Below are positions 1,559 through 1,712 of a stretch of 64,000 bases of DNA, piece after piece (position 1 is the first letter of the stretch; every line of letters begins with the position of its first letter). The notes beneath the pieces are model-generated. The model searched no databases. It had not been told where the DNA came from and saw only the letters and a list, made by a program, of their open reading frames with translations. The DNA comes from Escherichia coli (GTDB taxonomy: Bacteria; Pseudomonadota; Gammaproteobacteria; Enterobacterales; Enterobacteriaceae), in assembly GCF_003991155.1 (NCBI RefSeq), contig NZ_CP031293.1. One strand, written 5' to 3'. Both the position numbers and the translations under genes were made by a program.

Positions 1559-1712
1559 CTAAACCTCCGGTAAACAGGTTGCTGAGAGGGTGCTATCAAC
1601 GCGCTCGGTCAGTCCCCTCGCCCCACAGGAGAGAGGGTTAGGGTGAGGGGGAACCCTCGGCACCATGCCAACTTTCGCCAACATTCGCCAACATTCCCCC
1701 CTCACTCTGACT

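Follow-up and report, generated by a model that had tools for sequence, protein, structure and literature searches.

The stretch of E. coli DNA analyzed in this study, hereafter called the window, is 64,000 nucleotides long. Positions 1559-1712 make up the entire 154-bp spacer between cstA and ybdD, two genes encoded on the minus strand, with hcxA and entH as the outer neighbors (Table 1). The spacer is G/C-rich and purely intergenic. A preliminary description of this DNA, made from the letters and an ORF list, had placed the region partly within the C-terminal coding part of cstA, which is incorrect since the stop codon of that gene begins just after the last base of the spacer. Two small ORFs touching the spacer, at 1559-1771 on the minus strand and at 1540-1641 on the plus strand, were rejected as mechanical products of ORF calling, because the insertions and deletions found in the spacer between strains are incompatible with coding.

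We also searched the surroundings of the spacer for known signals. Scanning of 1200-2000 on either strand gave no promoter-like or terminator-like site, and an Rfam 15 search of 1300-4000 with permissive E-values returned nothing at or above the gathering score. Sub-threshold matches were chance-level hits to miRNA and frameshift-element models, as exemplified by mir-423 with 25 bits against a threshold of 71, and a known RNA family was ruled out for the spacer on the basis of that search.

Table 1. Features of the cstA-ybdD locus and its spacer (window coordinates).
Feature	Positions	Strand	Details	Basis
hcxA	263-1351	+		ORF list and RefSeq annotation of identical locus
ybdD	1361-1558	-	65-aa YbdD/YjiX family protein; start codon 1556-1558	ORF list, RefSeq annotation
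ybdD-proximal unique part of spacer	1559-1600	-		Spacer-allele alignments, direct reading of sequence
ybdD ribosome-binding site	1564-1568	-	GGAGG	Direct reading of sequence
Complete type-A BoxC (PIT/TMECO type A, HPG1)	1601-1651	+ (G-rich strand)		Shared with other loci, published consensus
BoxC head flank	1601-1613	+	GCGCTCGGTCAGT	Part of BoxC
BoxC C-block	1615-1623	+	CCCTCGCCC	Part of BoxC
BoxC middle block	1629-1637	+	GAGAGAGGG; A at 1630, consensus G	
BoxC loop	1638-1640	+	TTA	Part of BoxC
BoxC third block	1641-1649	+	GGGTGAGGG, then GG	
Putative central loop of composite BoxC pair	1652-1696	+	Includes three 10-mers (1667-1696)	Aligns with K-12 pair loops
cstA-side arm	1697-1711	-	GTCAGAGTGAGGGGG (sense strand)	Inverted repeat I1; aligns to G-blocks of left-hand K-12 BoxC
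cstA	1713-3818	-	Pyruvate/proton symporter; stop codon 1713-1715	ORF list, RefSeq annotation of identical locus
entH	3999-4412	-		ORF list and RefSeq annotation of identical locus

Repeats and predicted fold of the spacer

A repeat finder detected two inverted repeats in the spacer. The shorter one, which corresponds to the pair named in the preliminary description, joins 1614-1623 with 1641-1650 (10 nt, 90% complementary), and the longer one, I1, pairs 1637-1651 with 1697-1711 (15 nt, 87% complementary). The imperfect inverted repeat of the preliminary description is therefore real, but the two blocks named there as its arms are better matched elsewhere: CCCCTCGCCCC has its nearest pairing partner in GGAGAGAGGG (1628-1637), and GGGTGAGGGGG, which is the third block of the BoxC repeat treated below, finds a better partner in 1697-1711. 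Likewise, a tandem repeat does exist, although the unit is not a 9-mer present twice; Tandem Repeats Finder defined it as the 10-bp GCCAACATTC in 3.0 copies at 1667-1696 (score 53), the third of which is slightly diverged. Read on the sense strand, this unit is GAATGTTGGC. When the spacer was shuffled 500 times with its dinucleotide composition preserved, an inverted repeat of 13 matches in 15 positions was reached in 8 shuffles and a tandem match of 19 in 20 in none. The inverted and tandem repeats of the spacer are real and go beyond chance.

Folding of the whole spacer as sense RNA gave -65 kcal/mol for the window allele, with a z-score of about -2.1 to -2.3 that is modest relative to shuffled sequences; the spacer allele of K-12 differs less from its shuffles (z = -1.5). 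The outer stem of the minimum-energy structure is formed by the arm at 1697-1711, which pairs with 1637-1651, so that the predicted stem-loop begins 2 nt past the cstA stop codon. The GGAGG of ybdD is weakly paired in this structure, and no U-run or T-rich tail follows the predicted stems in the E. coli spacer alleles.

Sequence comparison places the spacer core in the BoxC family

BoxC is a G/C-rich repeat of about 50 bp that occurs only in intergenic regions of E. coli and related enterobacteria, often as an inverted pair of a type B and a type A copy separated by a short loop. Older tabulations give it a length of about 56 bp and 32-33 copies in K-12. The same element has been described as the TMECO motif by Holder et al. 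(2015, PMC4666352), who identified it with the earlier BoxC and the later PIT (potential intrastrand triplex) and traced it to the BoxC descriptions of the 1990s and to Maher and co-workers (2000). Their consensus is CCCTCNCCC-N3-6-GGGNGAGGG-N3-GGGNGAGGG. They counted 23 copies in K-12, all of them intergenic, with a TTA loop in type A and a CCG loop in type B, and five sites with an inverted A+B pair. We found no follow-up literature on TMECO beyond that 2015 paper.

On sequence grounds, the core of the cstA-ybdD spacer is a type-A BoxC element in slightly decayed form. It is homologous to the ~43-nt BoxC core GGTCCCCTCGCCCC-NNN-GGGGAGAGGG-TTA-GGGTGAGGGG and agrees with the published TMECO consensus at all but one base. 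It shares with the described family the three-block architecture (C-block, G-block, TTA loop, G-block) and the head flank GGTC.GTCCCC, as well as strictly intergenic placement and multiple copies. Its central loop resembles that of the A+B inverted pairs, an arrangement that it may share. Among the E. coli intergenic copies inspected, the core was also present at zntA-tusA, lptG-yjgR, gntP-fimH and ycjD-fabI; all copies inspected, including the one between cstA and ybdD, were intergenic. An alignment with four other E. coli copies delimited a conserved unit of about 50 bp in which most core columns were invariant and beyond which the flanks were unrelated, and at single-copy BoxC loci the sequence outside the core was not conserved either. 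The suggestion in the preliminary description that the spacer might hold a repeat-element remnant is thus borne out: its core is BoxC/PIT/TMECO, and the whole spacer reads as a truncated inverted pair of BoxC elements.

The multicopy nature of the sequence was also apparent at the level of whole genomes. In blastn searches of 5426 complete E. coli genomes, the entire spacer matched a median of 8 places per genome, and the 43-nt consensus core CGGTCCCCTCGCCCCTCTGGGGAGAGGGTTAGGGTGAGGGGAA matched a median of 19 places, with a maximum of 33, and was found in 5425 of the 5426 genomes. Within the 64-kb window itself, the cstA-ybdD copy is the sole BoxC-like element. No further copy was found there, a match with 3 mismatches at 11583 being at chance level.

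The element was already known, since the family has been described from the 1990s onward and the K-12 orthologue of this very copy has been tabulated. Kaplan et al. (2016, PMC5100583) rediscovered the BoxC sequence as the G-quadruplex group HPG1, and Table 1 of that paper lists the K-12 cstA-ybdD copy as HPGQ19 (cstA, 51 nt, midpoint 632058, minus strand, 108 nt, ybdD). HPG1 is the same sequence family as the element in the window, and the paper made no connection to BoxC. Three literatures that run under separate names, namely BoxC, the PIT/TMECO triplex and the HPG1 quadruplex, hence concern one element.

Reading of the whole spacer as a composite BoxC pair

We aligned the spacer with the complete inverted BoxC pairs of K-12 at entC-fepB, ygfF-gcvP, alx-sstT and hrpB-mrcB. 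Homology to the pairs at entC-fepB, ygfF-gcvP and alx-sstT spans the central loop and both arms, and the type-A copy with its head flank GGGGACTGACCGAGCGC lies within the homologous stretch. For example, the loop reads AATGTT-GGCA-TGG-TGCC-GAGG-GTTCCCC in the window and AATGTT-CGCA-CCAG-TGCT-GGCT-GTTCCCC at entC-fepB. Compared by eye with the G-blocks of the left-hand type-B copies, the arm GTCAGAGTGAGGGGG differs mostly by G-to-A changes.

The simplest reading of these alignments is that the sequence from the cstA stop codon to 1601 represents a tail-to-tail BoxC pair in which the member on the cstA side has lost all but its tail. The arm at 1697-1711 would then be the relic of a second, oppositely oriented BoxC of type B, of which just a 15-nt G-rich tail is present, and the 10-mer GAATGTTGGC would have been duplicated inside the central loop of the pair. 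The apparent reduction of the partner copy to this 15-nt tail distinguishes the window spacer from the BoxC pairs described for K-12, as does the 10-mer in three copies, which was not seen at the other K-12 pairs examined. Alternatively, the arm may belong to an older hairpin that recruited BoxC. The occurrence of a hairpin without BoxC in Escherichia species other than E. coli bears on this second possibility.

Triplex and quadruplex patterns of the window copy

BoxC oligonucleotides of consensus sequence form very stable triplexes in vitro, and a three-tetrad quadruplex is possible in principle for the G-rich part, but triplex formation was not supported by in vivo DMS footprinting; the same paper notes that in earlier work BoxC/PIT elements had no promoter, terminator or RNA polymerase-blocking activity (PMC4666352). 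At cstA-ybdD, the G-rich BoxC strand is the plus strand of the window and thus the template strand of both genes.

In regular-expression matching, a single base, the A at 1630 within GAGAGAGGG (1629-1637), kept the window copy from matching the strict TMECO pattern and sets it apart from the strict consensus of BoxC/PIT/TMECO. The same A deprives the window copy of a four-tract G3 quadruplex motif (four runs of three or more G, with 1-7 nt between them), and no such canonical motif was found on either strand of the 64-kb window. Unlike HPG1 as published, the window allele has no fourth G3 tract and is therefore not a predicted three-tetrad quadruplex. Read as mRNA, position 1630 has changed from C to U opposite a G, and the hairpin retains a G-U pair there.

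Other alleles of the same locus behave differently with respect to these patterns. Those of strains PK8261, ETEC1701 and GN05505 satisfy both the triplex and the quadruplex pattern, and the K-12 allele keeps the quadruplex pattern but departs from the triplex pattern in the third block. This departure explains why the K-12 copy is absent from the table of Holder et al.

Variation of the spacer within E. coli

Six spacer alleles were recovered from E. coli, measuring 112, 127, 142, 153, 154 and 182 bp. The most frequent was the K-12 type of 182 bp, which carries BoxC with two 10-mers and a REP at a position corresponding to 1593/1594 of the window, and which was assigned to 3701 of 5426 genomes (~68%), counting those that covered at least 80% of the query. 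The B2 type of 112 bp, found in 1187 genomes (~22%), has no BoxC core and instead forms a simple hairpin, GAGTGAGGGGGAA...TTCCCCTTACTC. The window type of 154 bp, which has BoxC without REP, was found in 290 genomes (~5%), of which 42 were at least 99% identical to the spacer analyzed here and so carried three 10-mers. Overall, the 10-mer was present in one, two or three copies depending on the strain.

The B2 allele probably arose by deletion of the core, since it retains CCGAGCGTGTTGATAGC, a segment common to the BoxC-bearing alleles that starts in the BoxC head flank and whose first bases belong to the flank found with BoxC elsewhere in the genome and in other genera. The strain differences as a whole, in 10-mer number, BoxC core, REP and single bases such as the G-to-A change at 1630, could be accounted for by slippage during replication and by deletions between the repeated blocks. 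In the six RefSeq-annotated strains checked, which cover 5 of the 6 spacer alleles, YbdD had a single RefSeq protein accession throughout; CstA had one accession in 5 of the 6 strains. The variability of the spacer matches the account in Holder et al. (PMC4666352), in which TMECO loci are unusually variable and 'mutated' and 'missing' forms are recognized. In this respect the cstA-ybdD copy equals the rest of the family.

Two polymorphisms of neighboring repeats were noted in the course of these comparisons. The REP GCCGGATAAGGCG...CATCCGGC at 1593/1594 occurs in the K-12-type strains (~68% of genomes) and in Escherichia species other than E. coli; it is absent from the window allele, in whose spacer the REP consensus GCCGGATAAGGCG...CGCCGCATCCGGC is not found. 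In addition, the entC-fepB intergenic region of the window (about 8829-9016) is missing 186 bp of the K-12 sequence at 8986/8987, with flanks that align almost perfectly. In K-12, the missing segment contains both members of an inverted BoxC pair in complete form (TMECO numbers 7 and 8, K-12 positions 624579-624676), so that a second presence/absence polymorphism of the BoxC family lies about 7 kb from the cstA-ybdD spacer.

The cstA-ybdD spacer across Enterobacteriaceae

A YbdD scan with one genome per species gave 80 loci. Wherever the CstA C-terminus was found, at 77 loci, cstA was the gene immediately upstream of ybdD, and the spacer, measured at 76 loci, ranged from 14 to 195 nt with no common sequence. 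Three spacers of Kosakonia type, at 14-20 nt, are too short to contain a hairpin, which means that a hairpin in this spacer is not indispensable.

The longer spacers are filled in different ways. In Escherichia species other than E. coli (E. albertii, E. whittamii and two more), the hairpin is accompanied by a REP, and BoxC is lacking. A simple hairpin, CCCTCTCC...GGAGAGGG, occupies the spacer of Salmonella and most Citrobacter, a REP-like one, GCCGGGTGGCGCTAGCGCTTACCCGGC, that of several Enterobacter, Leclercia and Lelliottia, and a terminator-like one that of C. freundii and Atlantibacter. BoxC itself was found in the orthologous spacer of Enterobacter asburiae, E. hormaechei, E. cloacae, Lelliottia, Leclercia, Pluralibacter, Phytobacter ursingii, Pseudocitrobacter, Cedecea davisae and some Enterobacteriaceae isolates. 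Outside E. coli, it mostly takes the form of head-to-head pairs, as opposed to the tail-to-tail arrangement in E. coli, and single copies behind a REP-like hairpin also occur. The residual interest of the locus lies in this point, that one spacer is filled by BoxC in differing arrangements across genera and by other palindromes in relatives.

Head-to-head pairs are present in Enterobacter hormaechei (L025), Leclercia (L071), Lelliottia (L068) and Phytobacter ursingii (L072), at bases ~1084-1200 of the respective loci. They are near-perfect palindromes of 80-110 nt with fold z-scores of -9 to -12, and sister species carry the REP-like hairpin only.

We then compared predicted folding for the 79 spacers of at least 30 nt, consisting of 73 Enterobacteriaceae loci and the 6 E. 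coli alleles, using 100 dinucleotide shuffles for each. All 79 z-scores were negative, with a median of -3.4 and 85% below -2, a uniformity that is no proof of selection since the compared spacers are related and hairpins after genes are common. A T-rich stretch followed the minimum-free-energy hairpin in 10 of the 79, for example in Citrobacter freundii and Atlantibacter subterranea. According to these predictions, the property that is conserved at the locus is a strong stem-loop just past cstA and no particular sequence. The preliminary description had named a lack of conservation together with the lack of a stable predicted structure as what would refute its proposal, and the outcome is split: the sequence is not conserved, but a stable structure is predicted here and in other genera.

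Function of the spacer

Taken together with its variability, the composition of the spacer makes it very probable that it is a decayed composite BoxC without sequence-specific regulation, acting at most as a generic hairpin. Both cstA and ybdD are needed for pyruvate uptake (PMC5847655), a paper in which we found no direct evidence of their co-transcription. The two genes are most likely transcribed together, because they are invariably adjacent with spacers as short as 14 nt, because no promoter or terminator was seen in the spacer, and because they share the pyruvate uptake function. In such a transcript, BoxC would be copied as its C-rich strand and would give a long stem-loop 2 nt past the cstA stop codon. 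That hairpin could block 3'-to-5' exonucleases and so protect the cstA part of the message; alternatively, it could have a mild damping effect on read-through or on the termination of translation. The same role would be filled by the REP-like or simple hairpins that other lineages have at this place.

There is precedent for such hairpins in the REP/BIME elements found inside operons, for example at malE-malF, which are dispersed palindromes whose stable stem-loops are able to protect upstream mRNA. Liang, Rudd and Deutscher reportedly observed in 2015 that REP elements close to stop codons cause ribosome stalling. For BoxC, we know of no protein partner or mobilizing enzyme and of no effect on mRNA that has been shown. 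Decay of REP-containing mRNAs requires RNase R and PNPase (PMC12320835). REP/BIME elements and BoxC also meet at this locus, as a REP adjoins BoxC in the K-12 spacer allele and REP-like hairpins occur in Enterobacter, Leclercia and Lelliottia spacers, but REP/BIME is a different sequence family.

The preliminary description favored another function, a structured RNA that couples ybdD translation to that of cstA. A dedicated cis-regulatory RNA of this kind, coupling or tuning the two, would accord with the predicted long mRNA stem-loop beginning 2 nt past the cstA stop codon, with the strong spacer hairpin in almost all genera examined, and with the joint action of the two proteins. We nevertheless consider it improbable. 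The element lies more than 30 nt upstream of the GGAGG of ybdD, which is outside it and weakly paired in the predicted fold, and its distance to the ybdD start varies with spacers of 14-195 nt that share no sequence between genera. Moreover, BoxC is missing from ~22% of E. coli genomes and from Escherichia species other than E. coli, and many E. coli genomes lack the element or have another sequence in its place, with the proteins unchanged; indels and repeat number vary while the YbdD accession is constant in six RefSeq strains. The lack of an Rfam family match points in the same direction.

A second proposal places the function in the DNA itself, with the G-rich template strand folding into a G-quadruplex or intrastrand triplex that blocks RNA polymerase and lowers ybdD relative to cstA. 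Its appeal comes from the triplexes formed by BoxC in vitro and the quadruplex possible in principle (PMC4666352), and from the quadruplex-hairpin-duplex switch with a terminator-like role within operons proposed in PMC5100583, in which the K-12 copy is listed. Yet the window copy has neither four G-tracts of at least 3 nor, owing to the A at 1630, the strict triplex pattern, and the footprinting and polymerase-blocking results quoted above (PMC4666352) are unsupportive. The orientation of BoxC in the cstA-ybdD spacer also differs between genera, and the element is missing from about 22% of E. coli genomes. At this locus there are natural alleles in which the triplex or quadruplex pattern is broken or the core is deleted and the neighboring proteins are unchanged. 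They argue against an essential non-B-DNA function here, and we regard such a switch as very unlikely.

A third proposal, an intrinsic terminator of cstA with ybdD read from its own promoter, could draw on the G/C-rich hairpin that directly follows the cstA stop codon, on RegulonDB, which is quoted in PMC5100583 as treating cstA and ybdD as units of one gene each, and on the T-rich stretch found after the hairpin in 10 of 79 spacers. It is hardly credible all the same: the stems of the E. coli alleles are followed by no U-run, BoxC/PIT was reported to be without terminator activity (PMC4666352), spacers of 14-20 nt in some genera are too short for a separate promoter, and the terminator-plus-promoter model was rejected when the scan of 1200-2000 for both kinds of site came back empty.

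A different strong hairpin is found in almost every genus, which makes the spacer a convenient natural test case for the question of whether intra-operon hairpins are under selection or are just remnants of repeats that the cell tolerates. More tentatively, the spacer could be a place at which palindromic repeats have repeatedly landed or been retained in Enterobacteriaceae, an idea that we rate as possible and on balance doubtful. If it were true, one explanation could be that BoxC is or once was mobile and prefers sites that bear a hairpin; the other could be selection for a strong hairpin after cstA, of interchangeable kind, that sets the ratio of CstA to YbdD.

Two assemblies assigned to other phyla also yielded an enterobacterial YbdD. 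One is a 465-bp contig of Streptomyces sp. DH24 (L016), with 98% identity to the E. coli protein, and the other is a MAG labelled Bacillota (L042), with 89% identity and an Enterobacter-like spacer as well. Both look like contamination or mis-binned contigs in public assemblies.
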